Source of the DNA: Desulfobacteraceae bacterium
GTDB taxonomy: Bacteria; Desulfobacterota; Desulfobacteria; Desulfobacterales; JAIFKL01
Length of the DNA stretch: 42,927 nucleotides
Direction of reading: 5' to 3'
NCBI GenBank assembly: GCA_020049595.1
Contig: JAIFKL010000125.1
Location: 1-42,927, forward strand
In this document: positions 186-32,497 of the stretch, piece by piece
Layout of the letters: each line of letters opens with the position of its first letter
How positions within the stretch are numbered: the stretch's first letter is position 1
The notes under the pieces: model-generated
Told to the model about the DNA's origin: nothing
The model's database searches: none
What the model saw: the letters and a program-made list of their open reading frames with translations, nothing else
Program-made: the position numbers and the translations under genes

Positions 186-500
186 ATGGACATCCGAGGA
201 TAGCCCGGCCCCGGCTAAAATAGATATTGCCGGAGAGGGAGTTCATATCATTTACCAGTCCCGAAGGGACTTCTGAGAATAGCCCGGCAATTTATTGCCG
301 GGAAGATGGTAAACGGAGTTTTTTCCAAGTCCCGTAGGGACGACTGAGGACAATTCGGAGCGAAGCGTTTCAGCCGTCCCTACGGGACTTAAAAAAAATG
401 GGGGACCCGCTCTCATCCGGCAATAAATTGGCGGGCTATTTTCATAAGATCGCCCGCCAATAAATTGGCGGGCTATTTTCAGTCGTCCCTTCGGGACTAT
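186..500. repeat. Cluster of short palindromic word hairpins
   Basis: AGTCCCGAAGGGACT (257-271). CCCGGCAATTTATTGCCGGG (283-302). 18-bp inverted repeat AGTCCCGTAGGGACGACTG / CAGCCGTCCCTACGGGACT (328-389). Tandem copies of GCAATAAATTGGCGGGCTATTTTCA (417-483). Confidence 0.85.
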
Positions 501-6701: not shown

Positions 6702-6724
6702 TATTATAGGAGTTACGCAGTTCA

Positions 6725-6829
6725 GACCTCACCCCCCGGCCCCCCACCTCCCCCCCCGGCCCCCTCTCCGAAGGAGAGGGGGCGACTTCTGCTCCCCTCC
6801 CCTTCGGAGAGGGGGCCGGGGGTGGGGTC
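6725..6829. repeat. GC-rich nested palindrome (CCCCTCTCC-TTCG/GAAG-GGAGAGGGG word family)
   Basis: Outer inverted repeat GACCTCACCCCCCGGCCCCC / GGGGGCCGGGGGTGGGGTC. Inner hairpins GGCCCCCTCTCCGAAGGAGAGGGGGC and CCCCTCCCCTTCGGAGAGGGGG. Confidence 0.85.
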
Positions 6830-6938
6830 TCCGTTCCGTTCATAACGACATCGGAAAGTTAAATTGACAAAGTAAAATTAATTTATATTAAATTCACCTT
6901 ATGATTGACATTTTCTATCAATTCGGGCAAATTATTGG

Positions 6939-7008
6939 GAAGTGAGAATTGAGAATTGAGAAATCAACACTTCCTGTTTCTCAATTCTCAATTCTCAATT
7001 CTCAATTT
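6939..7008. repeat. Inverted heptamer pair (hairpin)
   Basis: (TGAGAAT)n at 6939-6963, loop TCAACACTTCCTG, (ATTCTCA)n at 6977-7008. Lies 20 nt upstream of the PrkA-like start. Confidence 0.9.
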
Positions 7009-10899: not shown

Positions 10900-11373
10900 A
10901 TGGCTTACAATTTTAATGCAGATGACGTATTTGAAATGGCTGAACAGTTGGAAAGAAACGGCGCGGCATTTTACAAGACCGCAGCAGAAAAGATTTCGGC
11001 ACCCGAAGCAAAAAAGCTGCTGCTCAAATTAGCCGAAATGGAAGTCGGACACGAAAAAATATTTGCCGCTTTAAGAGCCGAACTTTCGGTTCAGGAAAAA
11101 ACATCAACGATTTTTGATCCTCAGGGAGAAGCGGCGCTTTATCTTCGTGCGCTTGCCGACACGCGTGTCTTTTTTGAAAAGAAAATTGACTCCTCATCTA
11201 TGAAGGAAATCCTGAAAGCCGCCATCGAAGCGGAAAAAGACTCCATCGTGTTTTATCTGGGAATGAAAGATGCCATCCCCGAAAAATTGGGAAAAAACCG
11301 CATGGACACGATTATCAGAGAAGAGATGGGACACATCCGGCTTCTCGGTAAGGAATTGCTTGCGCTTAAATAA
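10900..11373 (+). CDS. Rubrerythrin/ferritin-like di-iron protein (no rubredoxin domain)
   Basis: Two E..E..H-type metal motifs (AEMEVGHEKIF and IREEMGHIRLL) in a 157-aa four-helix-type protein. Confidence 0.75.
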   Translation: MAYNFNADDVFEMAEQLERNGAAFYKTAAEKISAPEAKKLLLKLAEMEVGHEKIFAALRAELSVQEKTSTIFDPQGEAALYLRALADTRVFFEKKIDSSSMKEILKAAIEAEKDSIVFYLGMKDAIPEKLGKNRMDTIIREEMGHIRLLGKELLALK

Positions 11374-11790
11374 GTGAGAAGTGATACCAATTCGCTATCA
11401 AAAACAGTGTTCTCCGTATCTGTTTTAAGCCGGGCGCTTTTCAGGCGGTTTAAGCGATCTCCGTATCTGTTTTAAGCTTCGGCGCTTTTTAAGCGCCCGG
11501 CTAAAAATAGATGCGGTTTATCTGTTTTCAGCCGGGTGTTTTCAGCCGGGGGCGCTTTACGATCTGTTTTCCGTAAAACCGCTTTTCAAGCGGTTTAAGC
11601 GATTTGAAAAATCGCTTTACGATCTGAACTCTGTAAAACCGCTTTTTAAGCGGTTTAAGCGGTTTATCTGTTTTCAGCCGGGTGTTTTCAGCCGGGGGCG
11701 CTTTACGATCTGAATCTGTTTTAAGCCGGGCCGATCTTTGAAAGCGAATTGGTATCAGTCTGAGCCTGTCAAAGACTCAATTCTCACTTA
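11371..11790. repeat. About 420-bp nested composite palindromic element
   Basis: Outer single heptamer units (TAAGTGAGAAGTGA / TCAATTCTCACTTA). Next layer TACCAATTCGCTATCAAA (11385-11403) / TTTGAAAGCGAATTGGTA (11737-11754). The interior holds GTAAAACCGCTTTTNAAGCGGTTTAAGCG hairpins and a roughly 145-bp-period direct repeat (11515-11566 and 11660-11711). Confidence 0.85.
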
Positions 11791-12190: not shown

Positions 12191-12751
12191 CTAAATAACA
12201 GTTTTTGTGGAAAAAAAGGAGAATTTTTCATCAATTTCCCTGAAATCGAATTCTATGGGCTGACTGGCTTTTTTAGCCATGTCAATAAAGCCGAGACCTG
12301 CGCCTTTGCTTTTGTCATCGGGTCCCTTTTTGCGCTGTTCTTTGTAAAATTTTTTCAGTTCTTCTTTGTCCATTTTCTGTAGCCGGGTCAGGCGCTCCGT
12401 GAGTCTTTCAACATCTTCTTTGTGAATACGGTTTCCGCACAGCACAAAATAATGTTCGCCTTCATAACCCACCGCAATGATACCGATGCTCAGTTCATCC
12501 TGTTTTTCGCTTCCGGGCAGAATTTCTTTGGGACATTTTTCAGCAGAATAATGGATAACATTCTGCGCCTGCTCCACAACCATGGAGAAAACTCTGAGCG
12601 CAACGGAGTTGTGGGCTTCTTCCAATTCCATTTTCAGTTTCAGCGTCGCGCCGATTTCCACGAGCAGATCCTGTGAAACCGGACCGCTGAAACAAAAGAA
12701 AATTCCCCGCCTGTTGAGGTCATTTTTGAAATCATAAAGATTTTGCAACAT
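12191..12751 (-). CDS. SiaB-like protein kinase (anti-sigma-type GHKL fold)
   Basis: N-terminus LYDFKNDLNRRGIFFCFSGPVSQDLLVEIG and C-terminal GAGLGFIDMAKK, typical of SiaB-family kinases. ATG 12751 has GAGGGAG about 8 nt upstream; ORF-track start is 12775. Confidence 0.8.
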   Translation of the reverse strand: MLQNLYDFKNDLNRRGIFFCFSGPVSQDLLVEIGATLKLKMELEEAHNSVALRVFSMVVEQAQNVIHYSAEKCPKEILPGSEKQDELSIGIIAVGYEGEHYFVLCGNRIHKEDVERLTERLTRLQKMDKEELKKFYKEQRKKGPDDKSKGAGLGFIDMAKKASQPIEFDFREIDEKFSFFSTKTVI

Positions 12752-12778
12752 ATTCATACTCCCTCTTTTAAACATGAA

Positions 12779-12844
12779 AACAAGTTGCAGGTAACAGGTT
12801 GCAAGATAACCTGTTACATGTTACCTGTTACATGTAACTTGTTT
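12779..12844. repeat. CAGGT-word palindrome between the siaB-like and siaC-like genes
   Basis: AACAAGTTGCAGGTAACAGGT ... ACCTGTTACATGTAACTTGTT. Confidence 0.8.
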
Positions 12845-13233
12845 CATTTTTGAATCTGAATCAGGTTAAATTCCAACGATGCCAAATCTTCTTTAAAGTC
12901 CTCTCCGTTTTCCATGGCCATATCATTTTCCTGATCGTAATACCAGTTGACAACAATATGCTTTCCTTCGGAAACAGCCTTGTCAAGCAAATCAAACAGT
13001 CCCATGAATGTTTTTGAGCTGTTGCTGTTGAAATACACCATTTCGATATTCACCGTAACTTTCCGCTCTTGTGACAATTGTGCCAGATACGATCTTATCC
13101 ATTCCGATACCGGTCTGTAAAAATCGGCAAGATTTTCAGGATAGGACTCCCCCCTGATCTCCAGTATGTCTTTATCCGCATCAAATCGGATATACGGCGT
13201 GTATTTTGTTGCTTCAATAATCAGATTGTTCAT
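12844..13233 (-). CDS. SiaC-family regulatory phosphoprotein (DUF1987), paralogue 1
   Basis: MNNLIIEATKYTPYIRFD...LEIRGESYPEN...YFNSNSSK...VNWYYD; clear paralogue of 11792-12178. Confidence 0.85.
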   Translation of the reverse strand: MNNLIIEATKYTPYIRFDADKDILEIRGESYPENLADFYRPVSEWIRSYLAQLSQERKVTVNIEMVYFNSNSSKTFMGLFDLLDKAVSEGKHIVVNWYYDQENDMAMENGEDFKEDLASLEFNLIQIQK

Positions 13234-13244
13234 TTCCCCTCTTT

Positions 13245-13428
13245 ATTGAGAATTGAGAATTGAGAATTGAGAATTGAGAAAGGTTTCTCGCATCTATTTT
13301 TAGCCTTGGCGCAGAGATTGCAAAGTTTTTTTTATAAAAAGAGTTTTTCTTTGCGCCCTTTGCGCCAAGGCTAAAAATAGATGCGAGACATTATTTAGAA
13401 TTGACAATTCTCAATTCTCAATTCTCAA
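13245..13428. repeat. Three-layer nested palindrome capped by heptamer arms
   Basis: (TGAGAAT)5 at 13245-13281 / (ATTCTCA)3 at 13408-13428. Inner inverted repeat 13283-13312 / 13362-13389 (GGCTAAAAATAGATGCGAG word). Core CTTTGCGCCC word with a TTTTTATAAAAA centre. Confidence 0.9.
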
Positions 13429-15689
13429 AATCCGAACCCGATAACGGTCATATCGTCTCTTTGTTCTTCATCGCCTTTCCATGCCATATATGCTTCTCTT
13501 ATGAGCCTCTTCTGTTCATCAAAAGATTTTTCCCGCATTTCTTTCAGCAGGGAACGAAAGCGTTTGTTTCCGAAAGGAAGATGTCCAGGTCCCCCGGGCT
13601 GATCCGTGATGCCGTCTGTTGCCATATAAAATGACATGCCCTCCTGAATCGGAATCTGATGATTGCTGAAATTGAAATCAGGATTTGCGTCTTTATATCC
13701 GATGCTATGCCTGTCGCCTCTGATAATCCTGAGCGTATCCCCCGACGAGGTATATGCCAGCGCGGTTTTTGCGCCTGCAAAGGTCAGGATTCCGGTTTTC
13801 ACATTCATAAAAACGATGCCCGCATCCATACCGTCATCAGAACCGGCAGTTTTTTCATCAGAAGAATATAAAGAGGTTTTGACCGCAGCATTCAGAGATT
13901 TCAATATTTGCGAGGGATCATTGTAATAATCTTTCTGAATGATTTCTTTAAAAGCGGTTCCGGCAAGCATGGTCATCAGCGCGCCCGGAATGCCGTGACC
14001 CGTACAGTCTATCAGCGCCATCAGCCAGCCTTCCGGAAATTCCTCAAAGAAATATATGTCGCCGCCCACAATATACTTGGGTTCGTCTATGATGAAACAG
14101 TGCTTCAGACACCTGTTTATCGCGGCTTCGGAGGGCAGAAGCGAGCGCTGGATGCGTTCAGCGTAGCGGATATTTTCCAGAATATGCTTGTTGGCATATT
14201 CCACCTGTTCAAGACTTGCCCGCAGTTCCCCGGTTCTTTCTTCCACAATTTCTTCCATCATCTGTGTGGCTTCTTCCTGCGCTGCAAAAGCCTCATGCCG
14301 GACTTTCAATATTTTCTCATAAGCCGCCAATTTTTCTTTGCGTTCAGCATTGATTCGGTCTGCCAGCCCCAGCCCCAGCAGAATGACTAACATCGCGGAA
14401 CCGATCTGCATGACATAAGCTGTTAAAAGATTGCTTGGCAAAATGCCGAAAGATTTCAAAGCGTAAAAAATCGCCCCGATGCCGAAGCAGCACCATGCAA
14501 TCATAAAATATTTGGCAACACGATGCCCCGTTTTCAGACAGAAAAGCCCCGTCAGCAGCACTGCCCCCACTAACGGCATGATACATATCACCGCTATTTT
14601 CACGCTCAGACTGTAACTGCTCAGAATTAAGGAAAACACGGCGCTTGCAGCCGCAGCAGTTGAAAAAATGTTAAGGAGACTGTCCATGCGGGGCATGGCG
14701 ATTTCGGTTTTCAGAAAAGCCCGGGTAAACTGTGCAATCCATAAGCCTGTGAATGCGATAAAAAAAGGAATGCTGCGATTGAACCACCAGGGCAGTTCTG
14801 ACCACAGATATTGGTATCCTTCACCGCTCAGGGACAGTTGAAAAAGCGTGTAACTGATGATGTACAGAATGTAAAAAAGATAGCTTCTGTCCCGGATCGA
14901 AACAAACAGAAAGAAATTGTAACATGCCATTGCCAGCATGATGCCGTAATAAATTCCGGACACAAACTGTTCTGCCGTCACTTTTTCGGCAAAAGCTGCC
15001 GGGGACCAGAGCGTAAAGGAAAATTCCATTGTTCCGGCAGTTCTGATGCGGAAATACAGGGTTTGCGGAGTTCCATGCCTCATGTTTACCCGGAATACAA
15101 AATGATGATGTCTGATATCCCGGTGCCGGAAAGGCAGCATATCTCCGCCGCGGCTGAGAACAAACCTTTTTTGCCATTCCTGTTTTCCGTTATGAACGGG
15201 GAACCAGCATTCCACATCATCTAAAAGCGGATAGTGTTCTTCCAGAAACCATTCTTTTTTTTCCGTTGTAAAACGACCCGGCTTAAAATCGTCCAACTTG
15301 TTTTGCTCATCTGTAAAACGAGTTTTCAACTCGTTTTGATAATCCAGCGTCAATCTGATCCAGTAAACTGAATCTGTATAGCCGAAATTCTGCACCTGCG
15401 AACCGCTTTCGACAAATTTTTCGGAAAATTCATCCGAGGCCACATCATTGACAGACCATTGACCGGCTTTATCTTCCAGATATGCGATGTGATGCCCCAG
15501 CGGATATTTATCCGTGAAGTCATTCAGAACTGCCGGCTTTTGCGCTCCGACAACTGACACAGGCGTCAAAAAAATCAGAAAAAGACAGAGGAAAAGAGAA
15601 GTGAGAAATGAGAAGTGAGAAATGCCGTTTTTTAATAAGACGGCTCTTTCCCTTTTCCCGCTTCTCAATTCCCGCTTTTCAATTCTCAT
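13425..15689 (-). CDS. SiaA-type PP2C (SpoIIE) phosphatase with 7TMR-DISM extracellular and 7-TM input domains
   Basis: Periplasmic 7TMR-DISMED2-like region, seven predicted TM helices, a coiled coil, then PP2C motifs (GGDIYFF, IDCTGHGIPGA, DDGMDA, ATDGITDQ, DDMTVIGFGF). ATG 15689 is chosen; GTG 15722 is an alternative. The stop TGA is the first unit of a heptamer array. Confidence 0.85.
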   Translation of the reverse strand: MRIEKRELRSGKRERAVLLKNGISHFSFLTSLFLCLFLIFLTPVSVVGAQKPAVLNDFTDKYPLGHHIAYLEDKAGQWSVNDVASDEFSEKFVESGSQVQNFGYTDSVYWIRLTLDYQNELKTRFTDEQNKLDDFKPGRFTTEKKEWFLEEHYPLLDDVECWFPVHNGKQEWQKRFVLSRGGDMLPFRHRDIRHHHFVFRVNMRHGTPQTLYFRIRTAGTMEFSFTLWSPAAFAEKVTAEQFVSGIYYGIMLAMACYNFFLFVSIRDRSYLFYILYIISYTLFQLSLSGEGYQYLWSELPWWFNRSIPFFIAFTGLWIAQFTRAFLKTEIAMPRMDSLLNIFSTAAAASAVFSLILSSYSLSVKIAVICIMPLVGAVLLTGLFCLKTGHRVAKYFMIAWCCFGIGAIFYALKSFGILPSNLLTAYVMQIGSAMLVILLGLGLADRINAERKEKLAAYEKILKVRHEAFAAQEEATQMMEEIVEERTGELRASLEQVEYANKHILENIRYAERIQRSLLPSEAAINRCLKHCFIIDEPKYIVGGDIYFFEEFPEGWLMALIDCTGHGIPGALMTMLAGTAFKEIIQKDYYNDPSQILKSLNAAVKTSLYSSDEKTAGSDDGMDAGIVFMNVKTGILTFAGAKTALAYTSSGDTLRIIRGDRHSIGYKDANPDFNFSNHQIPIQEGMSFYMATDGITDQPGGPGHLPFGNKRFRSLLKEMREKSFDEQKRLIREAYMAWKGDEEQRDDMTVIGFGF

Positions 15690-15740
15690 TTTCCGGTGAT
15701 TTCCGCACTTCTCACTTCTCACTTCTCACTTCTCACTTTC
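15596..15740. repeat. Heptamer hairpin element lying entirely within coding sequence
   Basis: (GAGAAGT/GAGAAAT) arm at 15596-15623. Centre GCCGTTTTTTAATAAGACGGC at 15624-15644. Degenerate then perfect (CTTCTCA)n up to 15740. Confidence 0.85.
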
Positions 15741-16555: not shown

Positions 16556-17164
16556 TTATTTTTTTTCCAAACGATAGGATTCCACGACGGCAATCAGTTC
16601 TTTCACCGTATCCGGAAGGCTGTCATTTACAATGATATGACGGTAACGGTCCTTTTCCGCCATTTCTTTTTCCGCATGGAGCAGGCGCGCGGCAATCACT
16701 TCTTTTTTGTCTGTGGCTCTTGATTCCAAACGGGCTTTAAGCGCCTCAGAAGACGGCGGCATAATAAAAATCGTCACAGCCTCGTGGTATAGTGTGATAA
16801 TTTGCAGCATTCCATGAACATCAATATCCAGCAGCACGTCATATCCGGCTGACATGGCTGTATCTAAAAATTCGGCGGATGTGCCGTAAAAATTGCCGTG
16901 AAGTGTTGCCCATTCTGCCCATTTGCCGGTCTGAGTTCCTTTCACAAACTCGTCTTTTGTGATGAAACAGTAATCAATACCGTCAGTTTCGCCTGCACGG
17001 GGCTGGCGGGTGGTATAAGATACGGAAAAGCGCATATCGGGAAAATGAGCAAGCAGGGCCTTGCAAAGCGTTGTTTTGCCTGCTCCCGAAGGCGCGGAAA
17101 GAATAAAAAGCTTGCCACGGGTTCGGGATTCAGTCACGGTTTTCATCGGAATTGTCATTGTCAT
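16556..17164 (-). CDS. gmk: Guanylate kinase
   Basis: P-loop [20 protein letters not shown], and YGT motifs. The start may be one of the internal Met codons (17158 or 17146). Confidence 0.9.
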
Positions 17165-17489
17165 AAGTTTTTTCCCTCTCCTTCGGGGAGAACACAGAGG
17201 AGAGGCTTATCTGTTTTTTATCGCTGCGGGCATTCCTGTCAGTGTCTTTCAGCATTTCATATCGCTGTGATATGGTTTCTGCCTGAATTGCAGAGAGAAT
17301 CACATGGTTACTGTCTGTGATGATGATTGAGCGTGTTTTACGCCCGTGGGTGGCGTCCACCAGACGTTTTTCTTCTTTTGCCTCATCTTTCAGACGTTTC
17401 ATCGGCGCGGAATTGGGAGAAACAACGGCAACCACGCGCTCGGCAACCACCGTACCCCCGAAACCGATATTTAACAAACTTTGTTCCAT
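17130..17489 (-). CDS. remA: RemA/DUF370 family regulator with a roughly 30-aa C-terminal extension
   Basis: [29 protein letters not shown]...[29 protein letters not shown] matches the RemA family. The tail runs through a hairpin word and overlaps gmk. Confidence 0.8.
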
Positions 17490-17504: not shown

Positions 17505-17556
17505 AGAATTGAGAATTGAGAATTGAGAATTGAGAAATAATTCTCAATTCTCAATT
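17505..17556. repeat. Inverted heptamer pair with a 3-nt loop
   Basis: (TGAGAAT)4 followed by TAA and (ATTCTCA)2, between the yicC stop and the remA start. Confidence 0.9.
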
Positions 17557-19274: not shown

Positions 19275-19532
19275 GATTCTTTCTCCTTACGCATGGTTGA
19301 ATCTCTGAAAAAGGTAAGGTAATAATGCAGACGCAGTGATGAATTTTATCTCTGTCATTCTGATCCGATTCTGCCATTCTGAGCTGACTGCTCATACAGA
19401 ACATAAAATATCATCATAGCAAATAAAATAGAAGCTTGCAAAATAAAAAACGCTTCCCCCTGTTTTCGCTACTTTCTTGCTTTATGAACTTTTTAATGTT
19501 ACAAGAAGTCCTCAAATAATGTTATTATGTAA

Positions 19533-19675
19533 TAGGAGTTACGCTTATGGAATTTCTGCATCGTAAAAATTAACCGCAAAGAGCGCAAAGTTCCCGCAAA
19601 GAGCGCAAAGTTTTAAAATATATCTTTGCGTAACTTTGCGGTTAAAAAAAGCAGGATTCAACTGCGTAACTCCTA
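19533..19675. repeat. Nested palindrome (TAGGAGTTACGC outer, CGCAAAG words inner)
   Basis: TAGGAGTTACGC (19533-19544) / GCGTAACTCCTA (19664-19675). TTAACCGCAAAG / CTTTGCGGTTAA. CGCAAAGAGCGCAAAGTT occurs twice. Confidence 0.85.
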
Positions 19676-19774
19676 ATGTAAATTGAAATATCGTCATAAA
19701 TTATGATGCTGATCATAAGGCTATGACCGTAACCGCAGGGGCAGGAAATCCCATAAGCCTGCATGATTTGAAAT

Positions 19775-20785
19775 ATGAGCAGTAATTTTAAAATTCAACA
19801 TAAAGAAAATGTCTTGTTTCCGGAAATGATTGCAGAAAAAACAATCAGTTTGGAAAGTCGCAGGTATATTGGAAATAAATCAAAGCTGACCGGTTGGATT
19901 TTTGAAAATATCTTGAACGAAACTGCTGAAATAAATACTTTTTTTGATGTGTTCGCAGGAACGGCAAGCATTGCGAAAGCAGCAATAAAATACTTCAAAA
20001 AATTGATAATAAATGATATTTTGTATTCAAATGCCATTATTTACAAAGCATTTTTTGAAAAAAGCCGGTGGAATAAAATAAAAATTGAAAAATTGTTGAA
20101 TGGCTATAATTCAATTGATCCCGATATGTTGACCGATAATTATTTTTCCGAAAATTTCGGGAATAAATTTTTTGACAACCAAAATGCAAAATTAATCGGT
20201 TTTATCAGAGAAGATATTGAAAAACAGAAAACGGATTTAACAGAAAAAGAATACAGTATTTTATTGGCAACTCTGATTTATAATATTGATAAAATTGCAA
20301 ATACTGTCGGACATTTTGACGCTTACATAAAAAAACCGATTAAATATCGTCAATTGGAATTAAAATTAATTGAATCCGTAGAATTTGAACATATTGAAAT
20401 TTATAGAGAAGACGCAAATAAATTGGTCAGAAATTTGCGGGCAGACCTTGCATATATTGACCCGCCTTATAATTCAAGACAATACAGTCGTTTTTATCAT
20501 ATATACGAAACGCTCGTAAAGTGGGACAAACCGCCTTTATTCGGCGTTGCTTTGAAACCCGAAACCGAAAATATGAGTTTATATTGCACAGTAAAAGCAA
20601 AAGACACTTTTAAAGATTTAATTGAAAATCTGAATGTCAGATATATTGCTGTTTCTTATAACAATACATATAAATCGAAGAGCAATTCATCGGAAAATAA
20701 AATTAAATTGGAATATTATATAAATATATGCAGCCTAAAATTCAAATTTTGTCAAATACAAATTTCGCTCTTGCAGATGTTTTAA
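19775..20785 (+). CDS. N6-adenine DNA methyltransferase, D12 (Dam-like) class
   Basis: Motif I FDVFAGTASIA and motif IV IDPPYNSRQY, then SYNN. The gene is very AT-rich. Its 3' end overlaps the next gene by 58 nt. Confidence 0.85.
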   Translation: MSSNFKIQHKENVLFPEMIAEKTISLESRRYIGNKSKLTGWIFENILNETAEINTFFDVFAGTASIAKAAIKYFKKLIINDILYSNAIIYKAFFEKSRWNKIKIEKLLNGYNSIDPDMLTDNYFSENFGNKFFDNQNAKLIGFIREDIEKQKTDLTEKEYSILLATLIYNIDKIANTVGHFDAYIKKPIKYRQLELKLIESVEFEHIEIYREDANKLVRNLRADLAYIDPPYNSRQYSRFYHIYETLVKWDKPPLFGVALKPETENMSLYCTVKAKDTFKDLIENLNVRYIAVSYNNTYKSKSNSSENKIKLEYYINICSLKFKFCQIQISLLQMF

Positions 20786-21669
20786 AAAGCGAATTTGTTG
20801 AAAGTACATCAGTAAAAATCGCTGTGGCTTTTTTACGTAGAACAGGTTTGGATTATTTATATAAAAGCTTAGATTATGCTTTAACTGTAAATAATGCGAA
20901 AGTTGAATTTATTGTTGGTTTAGATTTTAAAACTACTGACGCAGAAGCATTAACCGCTTTAAATGAAATAAAAAGTAACTATACAAATTTTGAATTTTAT
21001 TGTTTTGGAGATAAAAGAGATAATCATAATGATTTAATATTTCATCCTAAAATATATATGTTTCATACAGAGCTTTCAAAAGGAACAAAGTATAGCTCTG
21101 TTGTCGGTTCTTCAAATTTCACAGGTGGTGGTTTAACTACAAATTTTGAAGTAAATACCATTTTCAGAGAATACAAACCTATATATTATAATCAATTAAG
21201 TGCTATTTATGATGAAATAAAATATACTGATAGTATCTTTCAGCCTTCAAAAAATTACATAAATAAATATAAAAATATAAAAGAAGAATTAGATAAATCA
21301 GTAAAAAAAATAATTGATATTGATGTTAAAGAAGAACTTATTGAATTAAAACAAGAAGAATTAAACTTACCCGGAACAATTCCTTCGATAAACTTGATGA
21401 TTATTAAATTTATTAAAGAAAAAAATAAGCAAGGTTTAGAATTTGTTTCTTTAAAAGATATTTATATTGAACTTGAAAATCAAATTAAACAAAGAAATCT
21501 TGAAGGCAAATATAAATTAGATACTTTCAGAAATACAATCAGGGGTGAGTTAAATACAAATGAAATAAATAGCGGACACAAAAACAATAAAAAATTATTT
21601 ATTCGTTCAAATGATAAAAATGCTTTTTATAAACTATCAGAAAATGGTATAAATTATAAAGGAAGATAA
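20728..21669 (+). CDS. PLD-family (HKD) nuclease, putative restriction endonuclease, with a C-terminal winged-helix-like domain
   Basis: Single HxK...GSxN motif (HPKIYMFH...VVGSSNFT), as in Nuc/BfiI-type nucleases. Lies adjacent to the methyltransferase and is AT-rich. Confidence 0.75.
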   Translation: MQPKIQILSNTNFALADVLKSEFVESTSVKIAVAFLRRTGLDYLYKSLDYALTVNNAKVEFIVGLDFKTTDAEALTALNEIKSNYTNFEFYCFGDKRDNHNDLIFHPKIYMFHTELSKGTKYSSVVGSSNFTGGGLTTNFEVNTIFREYKPIYYNQLSAIYDEIKYTDSIFQPSKNYINKYKNIKEELDKSVKKIIDIDVKEELIELKQEELNLPGTIPSINLMIIKFIKEKNKQGLEFVSLKDIYIELENQIKQRNLEGKYKLDTFRNTIRGELNTNEINSGHKNNKKLFIRSNDKNAFYKLSENGINYKGR

Positions 21670-21671
21670 CT

Positions 21672-21890
21672 ATGTATTATGCAATTTATGATAATCAAAC
21701 TGATGAAATAAAGCATCTGGGATTAAATAGCAATTCCTTGAAAGAGATAAGAGACAGTCTGATAAGTTTTTTGTTGGACGGTAATTTTTGCGAAGAAGGT
21801 GAAAAATCAATTAGAAAAAGTTCATTGAAAAACCTATTGAATGATTACGAATTTTCATTGTTAAAATCTAAAACCCCATTTGAAATCTAA
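21672..21890 (+). CDS. Hypothetical 72-aa protein
   Basis: Starts 3 nt after the nuclease stop and has the same AT-rich composition. No motif recognised. Confidence 0.45.
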   Translation: MYYAIYDNQTDEIKHLGLNSNSLKEIRDSLISFLLDGNFCEEGEKSIRKSSLKNLLNDYEFSLLKSKTPFEI

Positions 21891-21922
21891 TACCGATTCG
21901 CTTTCAAACACGGGGTTTTTTT
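21874..21922 (+). terminator. Possible intrinsic terminator of the AT-rich islet
   Basis: Imperfect stem CCCCATTTGAAA / TTTCAAACACGGGG followed by T7. It overlaps the stop of the 72-aa ORF. Confidence 0.4.
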
Positions 21923-22011
21923 CCTAATTTTATGCCTATAACTACAGAAGATGACTTTTATTTTTTGATAGCGAGTTAGTATAAAAACGAAATTTTAACA
22001 ATTAAAATTAT

Positions 22012-22170
22012 TGGTAGTGGTATAGAAGATGTGATAAAGTCTGTCGTTGTCATTCTGATCTGAGTGAAGAATACTTTATTATAACAGTGTATTATATAAA
22101 TGAGATTCTTTCGCTCCTCTCAGAATGACACTTCCGAATCACCTGCTTCTGTACCACCAGCAAATTATTT
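22012..22170. repeat. Imperfect inverted repeat (GTCATTCTGA word family) at the right edge of the AT-rich islet
   Basis: ...GTCGTTGTCATTCTGA (to about 22058) against TCAGAATGACACTTCCGAATCACCTGCTTCTGTACCACCAG (from about 22120). Confidence 0.6.
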
Positions 22171-22417
22171 AAAAAGCAACGAAAGCGTTGATACAGAAAG
22201 GACTGTATAAAGCTAAAATTTCATTTTAGCACTCCGCATTTACAGACACATGCAGAAATGCGGCGTTTATAAAATTTCAATACGGTTTGGATGTTAAAAT
22301 ATTAGATATTGATTTATTTCTGAATCAATTAGAAAAACGGAAAACATTAAAAGAAGCCGCCTTTACGGCGACAAGCTGTAACTTATTGAATATAAAATAA
22401 AAAAGAAAGGAAAAACA

Positions 22418-25400
22418 ATGCGCTTTAAGAATCTGAAATTAGCGACAAAGCAGGGGCTTGCTTTCGGTTTTATCCTTGTGATCATGGCAGGCGTAACCGT
22501 TTTTTCCCTGCTGAAAATGTCCGCGCTCAAAGATGAGATTGACAGAGTGAATACCAAACGGCTGCCCGGAGTGATCGCTGTTTCCGAAATTAATTTCAAT
22601 ACTTCCGAGTACCGCATCAATGAAATGCAGCACGCACTGACCTATTACGGATACAAGATGCGGGAGCAGGAACAGATGATGCTGGGCCTCAAGACGAAAA
22701 TTGAAAAAAATCAGGAGGTTTATCAGCCGCTCATCACATCTCCCGAAGAACAGACGCTGTATTCCGAGTTTCAGGAAAAATGGGGGCGTTATTTAGAAAT
22801 GCACGAGCAGTTCATGAAACTTTCCCGTGACAGCAAAGACGAAGAAGCCCTTACGCTGCTCAATGAGGAAGCCTATAAACTGTTCAGAGATTTCAGCGCA
22901 AATCTGGAAGGGCTTGTCAAGCTGAACAAAGAAGCCTCGTTTGAAGCTGCACGCCGCGCCGAAGAGACCTACCGCTCCGCCCGCACGGTGACAACGGTGC
23001 TGCTGGCGATGACCGTACTGATGTCAACACTGATCACCCTGGTGCTGGTACGCACGATTACCATACCCATCCGGCAGTTGGAACGGGCTGCCAAAAGTGT
23101 TGCCGAGGGCAACGTCAATGTGAGTCTCGATATTCAGACACAGGAAGAAATCGGCAATCTGGCAAGATCATTCAACCGCATGACCGATTCACTCCGTGAG
23201 GCAAAACAGGAAAATGAAAAACAGGACTGGTTTAAGAGCGGTCAGAACGAACTGAATGAAAAAATGCGGGGAGATCAGGATGTGCAGACCCTTGCCCGCA
23301 ATGTGATTACCTGTCTGTCAAAATATCTGGGTGCGCAGATCGGCGCGCTGTATCTGGTTTCAGACGGGGAAAACGGGGAAAACACAGAAATGAAACTTGC
23401 CGGAACTTACGCCTTTGCCAAGCGCAAAAGTCTGGGCGACATCATCCGCATCGGCGAAGGATTGGCAGGGCAGGCGGCTTTTGAAAAGGAAATCATTTCT
23501 GTTACGGATGTTCCCCAAGACTACATCCGAATTGCCTCGGCAATCGGCGACACTCATCCCCGCAACATCATGGTTTCACCATTTTTGTATGAAGGCAGGT
23601 TGGTCGGTGTGGTCGAACTGGGAACTTTTGCGGAATTTACCGACAGGGAAATGGAGTTCCTGAAATATGCCATGGAAAATATTGCCATCGGCTTTAATTC
23701 TGCCCGGTCCCGGGACAAAATCGCCTTTCTCCTCAAGGAATCGCAGCGTCAGGGCTCAGAACTCAAGATTCAGCAGGAAGAACTCCGAGCCACCAATGAA
23801 GAACTGGCAGAGCAGCGGGACGCGCTCAGGCTGTCGGAAGCGCAGTTGAAATCCCAGCAGGAAGAGCTTCAGGCTGCCAATGAGGAATTGGAAGAAAAAA
23901 CCCAGTATCTGGAGAAACAGCAGATTGAGATTACCGAAAAGAATGTTGCGCTGGAAATTGCCCGGAATGACATTGAAAAGAAGGCAAAAGAATTGGAAGT
24001 GACCAGCAAATACAAATCCGAATTTCTTGCCAATATGTCTCATGAACTTCGCACGCCGCTCAACAGTATGCTCATTCTTGCCCGGAGTCTGGCGGACAAC
24101 AAAGAGGAAAATCTCAGCGAAGATCAGTCCGAATCTGCCCGGATTATTTACAAAAGCGGAAATGATCTGCTCAAACTCATCAATGAGATTCTGGACCTTT
24201 CCAAAATCGAAGCCGGCAAAATGTCGGTCAATATTGAAAAAGTTTTGCTCCAAGATGTTGCGGACAGCCTTCATGCCAATTTCAAGCATGTCATTGCCGA
24301 TAAGGGCTTGACGCTCGCTATCCGATTGGATGAGCATATCCCGGAATATATGGAAACCGACTCTCAGCGTTTGGAACAGATTATCAAAAATTTTATGTCC
24401 AATGCGATCAAGTTTACGGAAAAAGGCGAAATCACGTTTTCTGTTCACACACCTGAACCGGAGACCGATCTGTCCCGCAGCGGTCTGAATCGGCAGGATG
24501 CCATTGCCTTTTCGGTCAGCGATACGGGCATCGGTATTCCGGAAGACAAGCTTCTTGATATTTTTGAAGCGTTCCAGCAGGTTGACGGAAGCACTTCCCG
24601 GAAATACGGCGGCACCGGACTGGGGCTTTCCATTTCCCGTGAACTGGCAAAACTGCTGGGCGGTGAGATTCAGTTGAAAAGCGAAATGGGAAAGGGTTCG
24701 ACGTTTACACTCTATCTCCCCGGTTCAAGTAAGGTGGGCAGCTTGCTGCCCACCAAACAGAAAACCGCAGAGGTTCAGGCTTCGTGTAAGGCGGGCAGCG
24801 TTCGACTGAGCGCGGCAGTTGAGCCTGCCGAAACTCACGCCGAAGTCAAGCTGCCCGCCAAACAGAAAACCACAGAGGTTCAGGCTTCGGGTAAGGTGGG
24901 CAGCAAGCTGCCCACCCTACGGAAAATAACAGCCCCTGCCCCTTCACCCGGCGACAGGTGCATTCTGATTATCGAAGAGGATGCGGATTTTGTAAAGGTG
25001 CTGTCCGCGCAATGTTCGCAGAAAGGTTTCAAAGCGGTGGTATGTGCCAGCGGGGAGGAAGGATTGCAGTTGGCGGAAAAGCAGCGGCACGAGGCGATTA
25101 TTCTGGATATACGGCTTCCCGGCATGGATGGCTGGGCGGTTCTGGAGCGGCTCAAGGCAAATCCCGAAACCCGTCATATTCCGGTGCATATCATTTCGGC
25201 TGAGGAAGTCAGTCTTGATGCGCTCAAAAAAGGTGCCGTCGGTTTTCTCACAAAACCGGCTGAAAAAGAAGCTTTGGACGCGGCTTTCCGCAAACTCGAA
25301 AGCTTTATCGAGAAAAACATCAAAGACCTGCTGGTGGTGGAAGATGATGAAAACCTGCGGAAAAGCATCAGAAAACTGATCGGCAACGGCGATGTGAAAA

Positions 25401-26122
25401 TCACCGAAGCCGCCAGCGGCAAAGATGCGCTGGATGCCCTCCTGAACAGACAATTCGACTGTATGGTGCTGGACCTGGGGCTGCCGGATATGACCGGTTT
25501 TGAACTGCTCAGTATGCTGAAAAATGAAAAAGGAATCAATATCCCGCCGGTTATTGTCTATACAGGGAAAGACCTTAGCCGTGAAGAGGAAGAGCAACTG
25601 CGGGGCTATGCGGAGGCGATCATTGTCAAAGGTGTGAAATCCGAAGAACGCCTGCTGGATGAGACGACCCTGTTTCTGCATCGGATTGTCAGCAATATGC
25701 CGCAGAAAGAGCAGAAAGTTATATGCAACCTTCAGGATAAAGACAGCGTTTTCAAAAACAAGAGAATTCTTTTGGCAGACGACGACATGCGGAATGTCTT
25801 TGCCATGTCCAAAATTCTGCGGGAAAAAGGAATGGAGATAGTTAAAGCGGAAGACGGCGCGAAAGCATTGAAAGTGCTGGAACAGGAGCCGGGCATTCAT
25901 CTGGTGCTGATGGATATTATGATGCCGATCATGGACGGATATGAAACCATGAAAAAAATCCGGGAGCAGGAGCGATTTGCGAAACTGCCGATTATTGCCT
26001 TAACCGCAAAGGCAATGAAAGGCGACAGAGAAAAATGTATCGAATCGGGCGCAAGCGATTATCTGGCAAAACCCGTTGACATGGAAAGACTGCTGTCAAT
26101 GATGCGGGTGTGGATGTATTAA
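22418..26122 (+). CDS. Hybrid sensor histidine kinase (4HB_MCP-like sensor, HAMP, GAF, coiled coil, HisKA, HATPase, repeat-derived linker, three receiver domains)
   Basis: H-box ANMSHELRTPLNS. HATPase motifs DTGIGI and GGTGLGLSI. Three receivers (ILDIRLPGMDG, VLDLGLPDMTG, LMDIMMPIMDG). No Hpt domain. Confidence 0.9.
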   Translation: MRFKNLKLATKQGLAFGFILVIMAGVTVFSLLKMSALKDEIDRVNTKRLPGVIAVSEINFNTSEYRINEMQHALTYYGYKMREQEQMMLGLKTKIEKNQEVYQPLITSPEEQTLYSEFQEKWGRYLEMHEQFMKLSRDSKDEEALTLLNEEAYKLFRDFSANLEGLVKLNKEASFEAARRAEETYRSARTVTTVLLAMTVLMSTLITLVLVRTITIPIRQLERAAKSVAEGNVNVSLDIQTQEEIGNLARSFNRMTDSLREAKQENEKQDWFKSGQNELNEKMRGDQDVQTLARNVITCLSKYLGAQIGALYLVSDGENGENTEMKLAGTYAFAKRKSLGDIIRIGEGLAGQAAFEKEIISVTDVPQDYIRIASAIGDTHPRNIMVSPFLYEGRLVGVVELGTFAEFTDREMEFLKYAMENIAIGFNSARSRDKIAFLLKESQRQGSELKIQQEELRATNEELAEQRDALRLSEAQLKSQQEELQAANEELEEKTQYLEKQQIEITEKNVALEIARNDIEKKAKELEVTSKYKSEFLANMSHELRTPLNSMLILARSLADNKEENLSEDQSESARIIYKSGNDLLKLINEILDLSKIEAGKMSVNIEKVLLQDVADSLHANFKHVIADKGLTLAIRLDEHIPEYMETDSQRLEQIIKNFMSNAIKFTEKGEITFSVHTPEPETDLSRSGLNRQDAIAFSVSDTGIGIPEDKLLDIFEAFQQVDGSTSRKYGGTGLGLSISRELAKLLGGEIQLKSEMGKGSTFTLYLPGSSKVGSLLPTKQKTAEVQASCKAGSVRLSAAVEPAETHAEVKLPAKQKTTEVQASGKVGSKLPTLRKITAPAPSPGDRCILIIEEDADFVKVLSAQCSQKGFKAVVCASGEEGLQLAEKQRHEAIILDIRLPGMDGWAVLERLKANPETRHIPVHIISAEEVSLDALKKGAVGFLTKPAEKEALDAAFRKLESFIEKNIKDLLVVEDDENLRKSIRKLIGNGDVKITEAASGKDALDALLNRQFDCMVLDLGLPDMTGFELLSMLKNEKGINIPPVIVYTGKDLSREEEEQLRGYAEAIIVKGVKSEERLLDETTLFLHRIVSNMPQKEQKVICNLQDKDSVFKNKRILLADDDMRNVFAMSKILREKGMEIVKAEDGAKALKVLEQEPGIHLVLMDIMMPIMDGYETMKKIREQERFAKLPIIALTAKAMKGDREKCIESGASDYLAKPVDMERLLSMMRVWMY
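24729..24920. repeat. Word-type palindromic/direct-repeat element inside the hybrid kinase ORF
   Basis: GGTGGGCAGC-TT-GCTGCCCACC (24733-24754). GGTGGGCAGC-AA-GCTGCCCACC (24894-24915). Direct repeat CAAACAGAAAACCRCAGAGGTTCAGGCTTCGKGTAAGGYGGGCAGC occurs twice. GGCGGGCAGC / GCTGCCCGCC inverted repeat. This is the same GTAAGGYGGGCA word seen at 3562-3590. Confidence 0.8.
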
Positions 26123-26189
26123 TTGAGAATTGAGAATTGAGAATTAAACACTGTCTATTTCTCAATTCTCAATTCTCAATTCTCAATTT
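26120..26189. repeat. Inverted heptamer pair (hairpin) between the hybrid kinase gene and cheR
   Basis: The TAA stop overlaps the first unit. (TGAGAAT)3, loop AAACACTGTCTA, (ATTCTCA)4. The cheR ATG follows 2 nt later. Confidence 0.9.
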
Positions 26190-26191
26190 TT

Positions 26192-27016
26192 ATGACTGAC
26201 AACGAAATCGAAAAAATAGAGATAGACCTTTTTCTTGAAGCGGTTTTCCGGCGCTACGGCTATGATTTCACGCATTATGCCAAAGCCTCTATCCGGAGAA
26301 GGGTTCGGAATTTTCTGCAAAAAACGGGCTACACCCGCGTCAGCGAAATGATCCCGGAAGTTTTGTATAACGAATCGTTTTTTGCAAATCTGGTCTTTGA
26401 TTTTTCCGTAACTGTTACAGAAATGTTCCGTGACCCGGACTTCTTTCTGTCGGTGAGGAATATGATATTTCCCTATCTCAGAACCTATCCGTTTATCAAA
26501 ATCTGGCAGGCCGGCTGTGCAACCGGTGAAGAAGTTTACAGCCTTGCCATTTTGATGACAGAAGCGGGACTTTATGAAAAAAGCACTGTTTTTGCAACGG
26601 ATTTCAATGATCCCGCGCTGAAAAAAGCAAAAGAAGGTATTTATCCGATAAAAAATGTAAAAGACTTTACGGCAAATTATCAGAAAGCCGGCGGAAACTT
26701 ATCTTTCGCCAAATATTATCATGCACAGTATGATTCTGTTATTATGGATAAATATTTAAAACAGCGCATCACGTTTGCGAATCATAATTTGGCCACGGAC
26801 GGGGTATTCGGAGAAATGCATCTGATTCTCTGCCGCAATGTGCTGATTTATTTTGACAGAGAACTTCAAAACCGGGTGCTTTCTCTGTTTAAAGACAGTC
26901 TGATACACAAGGGTTTTCTCTGCCTCGGAACCAAAGAAAGCCTTCAATTTTCAGATGTGTGTGATGATTTCAAACTGATTGACGCAAAGAATAAAATCTA
27001 TCAGAAAAAGTTTTAG
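26192..27016 (+). CDS. cheR: CheR-type protein-glutamate O-methyltransferase
   Basis: IWQAGCATGEEVYSLAI SAM motif and LILCRNVLIYFD motif. Confidence 0.9.
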   Translation: MTDNEIEKIEIDLFLEAVFRRYGYDFTHYAKASIRRRVRNFLQKTGYTRVSEMIPEVLYNESFFANLVFDFSVTVTEMFRDPDFFLSVRNMIFPYLRTYPFIKIWQAGCATGEEVYSLAILMTEAGLYEKSTVFATDFNDPALKKAKEGIYPIKNVKDFTANYQKAGGNLSFAKYYHAQYDSVIMDKYLKQRITFANHNLATDGVFGEMHLILCRNVLIYFDRELQNRVLSLFKDSLIHKGFLCLGTKESLQFSDVCDDFKLIDAKNKIYQKKF

Positions 27017-27080
27017 ACCTCTCCCCACGACACCCCCTCTCCTTCGGAGAGGGGGCCGGGGGGTGAGGTGCGGGTGAGGC
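27016..27080. repeat. CCCCCTCTCCTTCGGAGAGGGGG hairpin word between cheR and cheB
   Basis: Same word family as 6725-6829. Confidence 0.85.
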
Positions 27081-30079: not shown

Positions 30080-30162
30080 GTTGCAGGTTACAGGTTGCAG
30101 GTTGCAGGTAGCAGGTTACATGCTACATGCAACTTGTAACCTGCTACCTGCTACCTGCTACC
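30080..30162. repeat. CAGGT-word palindrome upstream of ilvE
   Basis: GTTGCAGGTTACAGGTTGCAGGTTGCAGGTAGCAGGTTACATG ... CATGCAACTTGTAACCTGCTACCTGCTACCTGCTACC. Confidence 0.85.
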
Positions 30163-31254: not shown

Positions 31255-31320
31255 AATTGAGAATTGAGAATTGAGAAATACCGTTTTTAATAAGATGGCT
31301 CAATTCTCAATTCTCACTTA
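31253..31320. repeat. Inverted heptamer pair with the conserved centre CCGTTTTTAATAAGATGGC
   Basis: It abuts the ilvE TAG stop. The centre is nearly identical to that of 15624-15644. Confidence 0.9.
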
Positions 31321-32405: not shown

Positions 32406-32411
32406 GTGATG

Positions 32412-32497
32412 ATTACCGGCGTACTACTCATTCCCACGCTCCGCGTGGGAATGCAGACCAGACGCTCTGCGTCCGATTAAAGTATTACCGGCGTACT
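32412..32497. repeat. Direct repeat ATTACCGGCGTACT x2 flanking the hairpin ATTCCCACGC-TCCG-CGTGGGAAT
   Basis: Direct-repeat copies at 32412-32425 and 32484-32497. Hairpin at 32429-32451. Confidence 0.8.

Follow-up and report, generated by a model that had tools for sequence, protein, structure and literature searches.

A modular nested palindrome in the siaA-siaC operon spacer of a Desulfobacteraceae bacterium

Palindromic or tandem words occupy almost all intergenic spacers of a 42,927-nt stretch of DNA from a Desulfobacteraceae bacterium (assembly GCA_020049595.1, contig JAIFKL010000125.1, positions 1 to 42,927; hereafter the window). Here we describe one of them, a 184-bp element at 13245-13428 that fills the entire spacer between the stop codon of a siaA-like gene and the ribosome-binding site (RBS) of siaC. 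This operon-spacer palindrome, modular and nested, is of the same kind as repetitive extragenic palindromes (REP), bacterial interspersed mosaic elements (BIME) and miniature inverted-repeat transposable elements (MITE), and not a new kind of system. Heptamer arrays form its outer arms and smaller repeats its interior; such layers are separable, small words are associated with hairpin apices, and centres turn over fast while arms change slowly. From this pattern we infer what enzyme may be involved, in which direction individual events may have run and what the hairpins may do at the RNA level. We tentatively favour a two-tier model, in which heptamer hairpins would reside at cistron boundaries much as REPs do, and small non-autonomous palindromic repeats would accumulate or be exchanged at their tips.

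Anatomy of the element

An inverted-repeat search returns ungapped arms of 80 nt (13246-13325 and 13349-13428) that are 84% complementary and enclose a loop of 23 nt; a single axis, at about 13337, is common to all layers. Reading the sequence from the outside inwards, (TTGAGAA)x5.1 at 13245-13280 pairs with (TTCTCAA)x3.4 at 13405-13428 (24/24 complementary), a second layer is formed by TCTCGCATCTATTTTTAGCCTTGGCGC at 13286-13312 and its complement within 13362-13392 (27/27 match), and the innermost words, CGCAAAG/CTTTGCGCC, occupy 13313-13325 and 13349-13361. The 23-nt A/T loop holds a 12-nt palindrome, TTTTTATAAAAA, at 13329-13340. Layers 2 and 3 are one word of about 45 nt, here called word B, and not two independent families; a run of CTTTGCGCC x2 at 13349-13366 continues into the right copy of this word. 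Between layers 1 and 2 lies a non-complementary block of 16 x 16 nt, and a small heptamer tip, TTTAGAATTGACAATTCTCAA (13394-13415), adjoins the inner doublet, which is not exactly apical. In the direction of transcription, the parts of the element are as follows, with the two flanking genes given last.

13405-13428, minus strand: purine-rich 5' heptamer arm, (TTGAGAA)x3.4 on the transcribed strand; holds the TGA stop codon of siaA (13425-13427)
13393-13415: heptamer tip palindrome TTTAGAATTG-A-CAATTCTCAA, resembling the apex of a simple heptamer hairpin; also present in the related contig L313
13362-13392: word B, right copy (GCGCCAAGGCTAAAAATAGATGCGAGA...)
13313-13361: composite centre, with degenerate CGCAAAG words (13313-13325), the 23-nt A/T loop and the start of CTTTGCGCC x2
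13281-13312: word B, left inverted copy (AGGTTTCTCGCATCTATTTTTAGCCTTGGCGC), which forms with 13362-13392 an inverted doublet like those of REP doublets forming hairpins (REPIN)
13245-13280, minus strand: pyrimidine-rich 3' arm, (TTCTCAA)x5 on the transcribed strand; ends 3 nt before the siaC RBS AAAGAGGGG (ATG at 13233)
12844-13233, minus strand: siaC-like gene (PF09345), downstream of the element
13425-15515, minus strand: siaA-like gene (7TMR-DISM and SpoIIE phosphatase), upstream of the element; start approximate

As RNA, the transcribed (minus) strand of 13245-13428 folds into a single long hairpin (-98.1 kcal/mol, z = -14.1), and the corresponding DNA fold reaches -66.5 kcal/mol (z = -15.8); 0 of 200 shuffles equalled either value. 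The initial annotation of this DNA had described hairpins nested within hairpins at this site and had proposed folding the full element. The 80-nt arms, the perfect inner repeat and the single-hairpin fold bear out the nesting, and both foldings agree with it; the three layers described there have to be reduced, with layers 2 and 3 merged into one word and the doublet placed beside the apex tip.

Gapless 80-nt arms and one axis for all layers could also be the outcome of a single-step inverted duplication of a mosaic half-unit (heptamers, word B and CGCAAAG), or of symmetric outward growth by slippage and template switching. Such an origin would be in keeping with the axes of another composite, 37274-37451, which agree within 2 nt, with copy-number changes by single heptamers between strains, and with layers 2 and 3 being one word that is also found solo. 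It seems hardly probable in view of intermediates with intact arms and an altered or missing centre (see below), of the 16 x 16-nt non-complementary block and separate tip between layers 1 and 2, and of eccentric composites at 257-498 (19 nt) and 19533-19675 (up to 13 nt).

The element lies on the minus strand of a siaA-siaC-DUF6272-siaC cluster, between the siaA-like gene and siaC. An Rfam search of 13245-13428 gave no match. A scan for intrinsic terminators did not call it either: its stem is rich in A/T, and an RBS and ATG, not a T run, come after it. An identity as an intrinsic (Rho-independent) terminator was rejected, since the GC-rich stem with U tract is missing.

Orthologous spacers in related strains and species

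The nearest homologues of its SiaA assign the organism to the Desulfobacteraceae, and look-ups of three window proteins by exact match returned nothing. The window was compared with sequences at several distances. Five strain contigs from two metagenomes (L001, L002, L173, L174 and L182) are 99.1-99.7% identical to it. Contig L313 belongs to the metagenome-assembled genome (MAG) 'Desulfobacteraceae bacterium IS3', with genes 94-96% identical in nucleotides over window positions 6.9-15.6 kb; L175 is from a sister species (84-90% identity); and L176-L181 are from a second, more distant IS3-like genome, whose SiaA is 53% identical. L001, L182 and L174 come from one JGI assembly; the source of L002 is an ENA sample, that of L313 an NCBI MAG.

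At the siaA-siaC junction, L313 has the entire composite as in the window, with different arm copy numbers, and L002 independently covers 13281-13373. A recent insertion of the B doublet was considered and rejected, as L313 has the same composite. Judged from these sequences, the composite is old and predates the split from L313, and the 'empty' allele of L001 would be a derived replacement. In this allele, from a 99.5% identical strain, the arms are retained, the B doublet is gone, and the centre consists of a 22-nt word with a new short tip. Set against the window/L313 composite between flanks of 99.5% identity, it is a complex replacement and no clean indel; no donor locus for its centre was found among the window and relatives' sequences compared. 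L175 has the first arm only, followed by a different nested inverted repeat within a 22-nt tandem array. L176-L181, which have an identical SiaA protein, carry one, three or four tandem GTAG-tagged REP hairpins of 39 nt (CCGCCTGAAGGCGG), resulting in spacers of 81, 159 or 198 nt.

Other junctions are similarly variable. The SpoU-siaA spacer has a GTGAGAA composite with a filled loop that is conserved in L175, minus a 21-nt mini-word only, and L313 has the first arm and unrelated fillers there. Between siaC and rubrerythrin, short heptamer arms enclose a 392-nt filler with a 372-nt MITE-like element in the window and a 36-nt mini-word palindrome in L313. The RemA-Gmk spacer has a 45-nt hairpin in the window and none in L313, DUF4416-YicC in L175 has a solo array and then a nested inverted repeat, and L172 (1537-1735) provides an additional succession of stop codon, arm, filler, arm and RBS. 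The interpretation given in the initial annotation would have failed had the whole composite come and gone as one unit. The layers are instead separable, with intermediate states in L001 (siaA-siaC), L175 (SpoU-siaA) and L313 (siaC-rubrerythrin), so that the composite is not all-or-none.

The YicC-RemA spacer bears on the arms. Its TTGAGAA hairpin is kept in L175/L315, where the genes are about 87% identical and a single U-A pair has become G-C in a compensatory change; L176 has a GGGGTGC-type heptamer hairpin at this place and L313 a CACGAA palindrome. This stem has stayed foldable through the compensatory change; arms are comparatively stable, and centres are the hot spots. A palindrome kept at one junction in the window, L175, L176 and L313, albeit of differing types, the compensatory pair, and a stop codon inside the first arm with an RBS right after the second are what one would expect of purely functional RNA or DNA structures, that is, of regulatory stem-loops selected at cistron boundaries, with centres varying by neutral drift or tuning and without any mobility. 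Identical words at many unrelated loci, wholesale replacement of a centre between 99.5% identical strains and decay of the inner doublet in L313 without compensation speak against this explanation, and swapping palindrome families at one site requires a source copy. As a full account of the data we consider it improbable.

Between the window and strain contigs of 99.1-99.5% identity, structural differences are confined to these repeats. They comprise a 146-nt duplication, the centre swap, single heptamer units, the centre of 30080-30162, and 32411-32496, where the window retains only the last CGTGGTTAAAAA of a CACGAA palindrome. The elements represent essentially all structural variation among near-identical strains at this locus and are relevant to strain typing and annotation of Desulfobacteraceae MAGs.

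Repeats of this kind may be collapsed or mis-joined by metagenome assemblers, and one such case is present in our data. Contig L174, from the JGI assembly of L001 and L182, opens with a reverse-complement copy of the start of CheR (L174 1-78 versus window 26212-26289) joined via the hairpin at 26121-26188, a fold-back assembly artefact caused by this hairpin. An artefactual origin of the composites is nevertheless very improbable: the one at 13245-13428 is found in three independent assemblies (window, L002 and L313), the L175 composite is reproduced in L314 and L315, and none of the variant centres is a fold-back.

Contigs L002 and L315 also terminate within composites, and for metagenomics such elements are of practical concern, as they break assemblies or fold them back. 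They also affect gene calls. The 765-aa SiaA open reading frame (ORF; 13425-15722) and the gene call on L001 (2651-4948) traverse the hairpin at 15591-15738, and the L175 orthologue is called at 696 aa. The overrun occurs because the pyrimidine-rich arm is free of stop codons; such arms inflate ORF calls by systematically extending predicted 5' ends.

Two further observations concern the relatives themselves. MAG IS3 (GCA_002083955.1) contains two divergent copies of the Trm112-DUF4416-YicC-RemA-Gmk-SpoU-siaA locus; one of its SiaA proteins clusters at 90% or above with that of the window and the other is 53% identical, and this bin probably mixes two genomes. The L176-L181 strains also vary in the presence of a HigB toxin gene.

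Heptamer hairpins in the window and beyond

Allowing at most one mismatch, the window has 29 copies of the heptamer dimer TTGAGAATTGAGAA, where chance predicts 0.05. The arrays are intergenic, head-to-tail and of period 7, and are detected as tandem heptamers by Tandem Repeats Finder. Arrays of TTGAGAA, GTGAGAA and GGTTGCA units are paired in inverted orientation, as are GGGGTCA/GGTGAGG types in relatives. In every inverted pair, in the window and in relatives, the purine-rich array is the 5'-most one. Reading gene ends against the arrays, we found that 10 of the 12 window arrays overlap with the upstream gene's stop codon or begin there; TGA occurs in all three frames of (TTGAGAA)n, and the complementary strand is stop-free. 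The principal hairpins, besides the element itself, are listed here.

6934-7007: simple TTGAGAA hairpin, arms and centre paralogous to 26121-26188
15591-15738: SpoU-siaA spacer; GTGAGAA-type hairpin, its loop filled with 84 nt; conserved in L175
17505-17556: YicC-RemA spacer; simple TTGAGAA hairpin that L175/L315 retain, differing by one compensatory pair
26121-26188: simple TTGAGAA hairpin in the spacer between a histidine kinase gene and CheR; L175 has a GGTAAGA/GGTCAGA-type heptamer hairpin at the same site
30080-30162: GGTTGCA-type heptamer hairpin; L182 differs by a centre rearrangement and one heptamer unit
31251-31316: TTGAGAA hairpin whose loop consists wholly of the mini-word (31279-31298)

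Including their centres, the hairpins at 6934-7007 and 26121-26188 match at 91% over 69 nt. Loop lengths are bimodal, with 'empty' loops of 2-23 nt and 'filled' loops of 84-392 nt; both of the classes that the initial annotation had suggested cataloguing are therefore present in the window. The hairpin at 17505-17556, described there as having a short loop, has indeed one of 2-4 nt.

Exact (TTGAGAA)x3 arrays occur in more than 118 GTDB stretches from many phyla, including Cyanobacteriota, Bacteroidota, Acidobacteriota, Chloroflexota and Planctomycetota as well as Desulfonema magnum, and also in viral contigs (IMG/VR). None of the GTDB stretches is from this organism, and a lineage-specific heptamer could be rejected. 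Where arrays at the GTDB loci of other phyla have a complementary partner, it is downstream in 29 cases and upstream in 4, and about half of the loops exceed 20 nt. The notion that TTGAGAA is a special unit was also discarded: in IMG/VR the control TTAGGAA x3 is found in 59 stretches versus 61, and TGTAGAA x3 in 10. Since a control heptamer is equally common there, abundance appears to be a general property of heptamer arrays. The stop-codon association shows only a weak asymmetry across phyla (34 vs 23 of 108 arrays) and we do not claim it outside this lineage.

Small modules inside and outside the hairpins

Word B is composed of CTTTGCGCC x2 followed by AAGGCTAAAAATAGATGCGAGAAACCTT, at times extended by TTATTTCCGAAAA. 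It is found solo in L167, L175 and L165, as an inverted doublet without heptamers in L160 (6950-7095) and, joined differently, within MITE-like ATACCAATTCGC elements. Counts are small, with about three doublets and at least four solo copies in about 190 kb. This alternation of singlets and doublets is REP/REPIN-like behaviour, despite the variable ends of the word and the absence of target-site duplications. Inverted doublets of word B, arranged as in REPINs, are present in the window, L313 and L160. In a metagenome scan with GGCTAAAAATAGATGCG, 8 of 52 matches were related (seven JFJP01 contigs and L167) and the remainder looks like chance.

The ATACCAATTCGC element has terminal inverted repeats of 21 nt (95%), as MITEs do, a length of 130-370 bp, and at least 25 ends in about 100 kb. 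Inside it, the same small words are shuffled into a mosaic that includes tandem duplications. The heptamer arrays of the 13245 composite can also be read as terminal inverted repeats, albeit ambiguously.

A third module is a mini-word of 19-21 nt with the consensus CC(G/T)TTTTT(T)AATAAGA(C/T)GG. In the window it is recorded as follows.

15622-15643: mini-word (AT)GCCGTTTTTTAATAAGACGG at an arm-loop junction, missing from the orthologous composite in L175

The small centre first noticed as conserved between 15624-15643 and 31279-31298 is the same mini-word at both sites, and we could extend it to five loci and two arm families. At each of the five it is placed either apically or where arm meets loop in a larger palindrome. 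The arms are heptamers at window 15624, window 31279 and L313 8194, and unrelated CACGAA arms at L313 16049 and L165 5112. The mini-word resembles the small dispersed repeats (SDR) of cyanobacteria, which are words of about 20-27 nt with a fixed place in palindromes and variable between relatives.

How could nested palindromes arise?

In the two-tier model that we favour, the first tier would be the heptamer-repeat hairpin, a resident scaffold whose first arm holds the upstream stop codon and whose second arm ends at the next RBS. Such hairpins occupy many stop-to-RBS junctions and are retained there across species, with their arm length altered by slippage. Most likely they act like REPs, as RNA stem-loops affecting stability or translation at cistron boundaries. 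The second tier would include the B-word inverted doublet, the MITE-like element and the 19-21-nt mini-word, all placed at or near the apex and subject to quick turnover. One can imagine that the apex, single-stranded upon hairpin extrusion, is a substrate for HUH/Y1-type transposases, such as REP-associated tyrosine transposases (RAYT) or those of IS200/IS605, or for hairpin-break repair. The apex may also be the only spot in a tight spacer where added DNA spares the stem, the stop codon and the RBS.

Nesting is recurrent and far more frequent than random juxtaposition would predict, with three elements in loops against 0.3-0.4 expected. This follows from rough arithmetic: intergenic DNA totals 8.0 kb, of which hairpin loops occupy about 1.5-2%, and 3 of about 16-20 other elements lie inside loops (P about 0.005). 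The apical position of the mini-word under two unrelated arm families, together with doublets and MITE-like units that occur without heptamers, favours either a process aimed at the apex or survival at the apex only. The initial annotation had gone further and proposed that palindrome centres are preferred insertion targets or that palindromes grow outward from a centre, by a specific mobilisation or amplification mechanism. Part of this is upheld by the apex association of the mini-word; the 13245 site, where only replacement is seen, and the constant outermost position of the arrays do not agree with it. A check for target-site duplications at layer boundaries had been suggested, and a search found none there. 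With no such duplications, variable word ends and no transposase among the 20 window ORFs scanned, a specific mechanism of insertion into centres was not substantiated.

Several observations weigh against the two-tier model. The inner doublet lies about 1.5 heptamer units away from the apex, outside the loop proper. Heptamer arrays are always the outermost layer and never found within another element, in the window or in relatives, an order not expected from free mutual insertion. L313, at about 5% divergence, has the composite at 13245-13428 as well, and the sole change observed at this site is loss or replacement; the siaA-siaC polymorphism is thus one of centre loss or replacement and not of fresh insertion. 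The right B-doublet arm of L313 shows divergence with no compensating changes, so that the inner layer is free of structural constraint. No target-site duplications were detected at the flanks of more than 25 element ends or of the B doublet, and the ends of word B differ between copies, so that recombination fits better than cut-and-paste of a defined unit. Neither a transposase nor a RAYT was detected in a Pfam scan of the 20 window ORFs, which did not extend to the contigs of relatives. The sample is also small, with about 190 kb of related sequence from genomes that are incomplete throughout, and the assembly that yielded L001 shows a fold-back artefact at a different hairpin (L174).

The main rival, still rather unlikely in our opinion, is an exchange of cassettes through shared arms: heptamer arrays and CACGAA arms alike are homologies dispersed over many loci, and breaks at hairpin tips would be repaired from other hairpin loci, with centres copied and arms left in place. 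It would account for the complex replacement in L001 between flanks of 99.5% identity, the paralogous whole hairpins at 6934-7007 and 26121-26188 (91% over 69 nt), the mini-word under similar arms at several loci, the varying module boundaries without target-site duplications, and the final CGTGGTTAAAAA left of the CACGAA palindrome at 32411-32496. It has no donor to offer for the L001 centre among the sequences compared, and it leaves the origin of the first nested copy unexplained. In addition, the mini-word is found under two unrelated arm families, so that arm homology alone is insufficient. Taken together, the replacement in L001, words that end raggedly and lack target-site duplications, and whole hairpins that are paralogous are at least as compatible with recombination or gene conversion through shared arms as with transposition. 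Arm-mediated centre exchange, or selection that tolerates insertions at the apex, accounts for the data roughly as well as apex insertion does.

One could also suppose, and we think this unlikely, that heptamer hairpins form a distinct class of operon 'punctuation', in which a hitherto undescribed apex-specific activity would install or exchange tiny words (CCGTTTTTAATAAGAYGG, 19-21 nt) as well as larger cargo. Traits of this class would be the purine-rich arm coming first, the stop codon in the stem, junctions that coincide between genera and a polarity common to many phyla, for which RAYT/REPIN or MITE biology would be insufficient.

Relation to known repeats

Like REPs, BIMEs and REPINs, the repeats described here are short, intergenic, palindromic and present in high copy, occur as singlets and as inverted doublets folding into long hairpins, form mosaic combinations and are located between operon cistrons. 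REPINs have been reported to insert into or beside other REPINs (PMC3116915). Genuine GTAG-tagged REP doublets exist here too, at 37274-37451 and in the siaA-siaC spacer of the IS3 strains. In contrast to these families, the outer layer at 13245-13428 is a pair of tandem heptamer arrays and not a GC-rich palindrome. Neither the heptamer arm nor word B is self-complementary, the GTAG/CGTC tag is absent from the element, and there is no RAYT among the 20 window ORFs scanned. The words are clearly combined into mosaics, as in BIMEs; where a BIME has palindromic units in alternation, with linkers, the layers here are concentric, the arms surrounding the cargo.

Bacterial MITEs share with the ATACCAATTCGC element its 21-nt terminal inverted repeats, its size of 130-370 bp, its many copies and its presence or absence between relatives. 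Unlike MITEs, this element lacks target-site duplications, its interior is a shuffled mosaic of words, and no parent insertion sequence was identified for it. Cyanobacterial SDRs are said to be words of about 20 nt, reportedly described by Elhai and colleagues in 2008. One report describes SDR5 inserted precisely within a HIP1 palindrome (PMC4390886). Going by later papers, cyanobacterial SDRs and short tandemly repeated repetitive sequences (STRR) are similar in having dispersed words of about 20 nt at precise palindrome positions and abundant intergenic tandem heptamers, and they differ in phylum and sequence and in that the heptamers here form inverted pairs hosting small words.

Direct repeats of the heptamer TAACTGA are known from Beggiatoaceae, Cyanobacteria and Bacteroidetes (MacGregor 2015, PMC4679880). 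They too are intergenic tandem heptamers, patchy across phyla, positioned relative to coding sequences and without known function, and consist of direct arrays just upstream of start codons, with one inverted case reported (PMC4679880). The arrays described here, by contrast, are paired as hairpins, start at stop codons and enclose other repeats. IS1397 is said to insert into BIME palindromic units, and Tobes and Pareja reportedly described in 2006 insertion sequences targeting hairpins of REPs or palindromic units. Hairpin repeats can therefore be specific insertion targets; those elements are autonomous, with transposase genes, whereas the words here are non-coding and of 20-370 bp. Finally, copies of the Rfam Acido-Lenti-1 RNA behave in the window as another palindromic word family within mosaics. 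They lie outside 13245-13428 and are arms of an inverted doublet, unlike a free-standing small-RNA gene.

The element at 13245-13428 works like a BIME/REPIN mosaic and stands outside those families as defined, being neither a REP nor a terminator and having no target-site duplication of the MITE type. Four features look new: heptamer-array hairpins as a constant outer shell with exchangeable centres; their anchoring to a stop codon and an RBS; hairpins at the same positions across genera with different heptamer units; and a tiny apex-associated word common to different palindrome families. Specialists of bacterial repeats will not find this very surprising, but as a natural system it is clean and unusually rich. 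Should the apex preference be real, such genomes would let one follow, with heptamer arms as stable scaffolds, the ways in which hairpins of DNA or RNA attract small mobile sequences, tolerate them and swap them. It could also help to explain the long-noted abundance of tandem heptamers in bacteria.

Other composites and palindromes in the window

Three further sites had been proposed to have the same layering, namely 11371-11790, 37274-37451 and 19533-19675, and multiple inverted repeats were recovered at each of them. They are listed with a fourth composite.

257-541: inverted doublet of Rfam Acido-Lenti-1 copies, 257-302 (minus strand) and 453-498 (plus strand), enclosing a hairpin at 319-398
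11371-11790: short heptamer arms (AAATAAGTGAGAAGTGA and TCAATTCTCACTTATTT) enclosing the TGACAGGCTCAG word and the MITE-like ATACCAATTCGC element (11382-11757)
19533-19675: three-layer palindrome of CGCAAAG words, just inside the left edge of a low-GC restriction-modification island
37274-37451: inverted doublet of GTAG-tagged REP-like hairpins (REPIN-like), enclosing two more concentric inverted repeats

At 11371-11790, the 21-nt terminal inverted repeat TGATACCAATTCGC... (11382-11402 and 11737-11757) itself encloses further repeats. The MITE-like element includes a 146-nt tandem duplication, 11513-11658, that is absent from strain contigs L001 and L002. The three inverted repeats of 37274-37451 have axes at most 2 nt apart, and its ends, 37274-37307 and 37418-37451, are REP palindromic units. 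The GTAG/CGTC tag is present at 37274 (GTAGGGCGGACA...), at 24729-24920 and in the spacer repeats of the IS3 strains.

The layers of 19533-19675 have axes offset by 3.5 and 13 nt. The neighbouring island, of about 2.9 kb (~19506-22405) and low GC content (25-35%), encodes a D12-class N6-adenine methyltransferase and a PLD-family nuclease, which probably constitute a restriction-modification pair. The syntenic locus of L175 lacks this island and has an 80-nt spacer with a GGTCAGA heptamer hairpin instead.

Matches to Acido-Lenti-1 (RF01687) exceed the gathering score at 257-302 (minus strand), 453-498 (plus strand) and L160 6290-6335 (minus strand), and a heptamer array adjoins each of them. 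The 257-498 composite is eccentric by 19 nt; next to it, at 499-541, comes a solo heptamer array that opens at the stop codon of an OEP gene.

One palindromic insert lies inside a gene. At 24729-24920, about 220 nt of inverted REP-like GGTGGGCAGC..GCTGCCCACC units are in frame and translated without stops; they fall in a 1234-aa hybrid histidine kinase (ORF 22418-26122), within the linker that follows its HATPase domain. At the same point of the kinase, L175 has a different insert of 288 nt between GGTGCGG/CCCCGAA heptamer arms. The palindromic elements inside genes of Rickettsia are similar to the window insert.

The RemA-Gmk hairpin, a 45-nt CCTCTCC...GGAGAGG palindrome at 17162-17206 between the RemA stop and the Gmk start, is of the same family as 6750-6825 and 27033-27069. 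L313 lacks it and has RemA and Gmk abutting, a clean pair of occupied and empty sites. Words of the TGTCATTCTGAGCGGAGCGAAGAATC type, present in the window (19340-19390 and 22040-22130), in L175 (3090-3190 and 8830-8960) and in an unrelated Faecousia contig (L080), look like another short repeat family common to distant lineages. In the spacer between a response regulator gene and PrkA, the window has a cluster of G/C-rich CCCCGGCCCCCTCTCC palindromes (6702-6886), and L313 has 928 nt (12715-13644) with a PemK-type toxin gene and a small upstream ORF.

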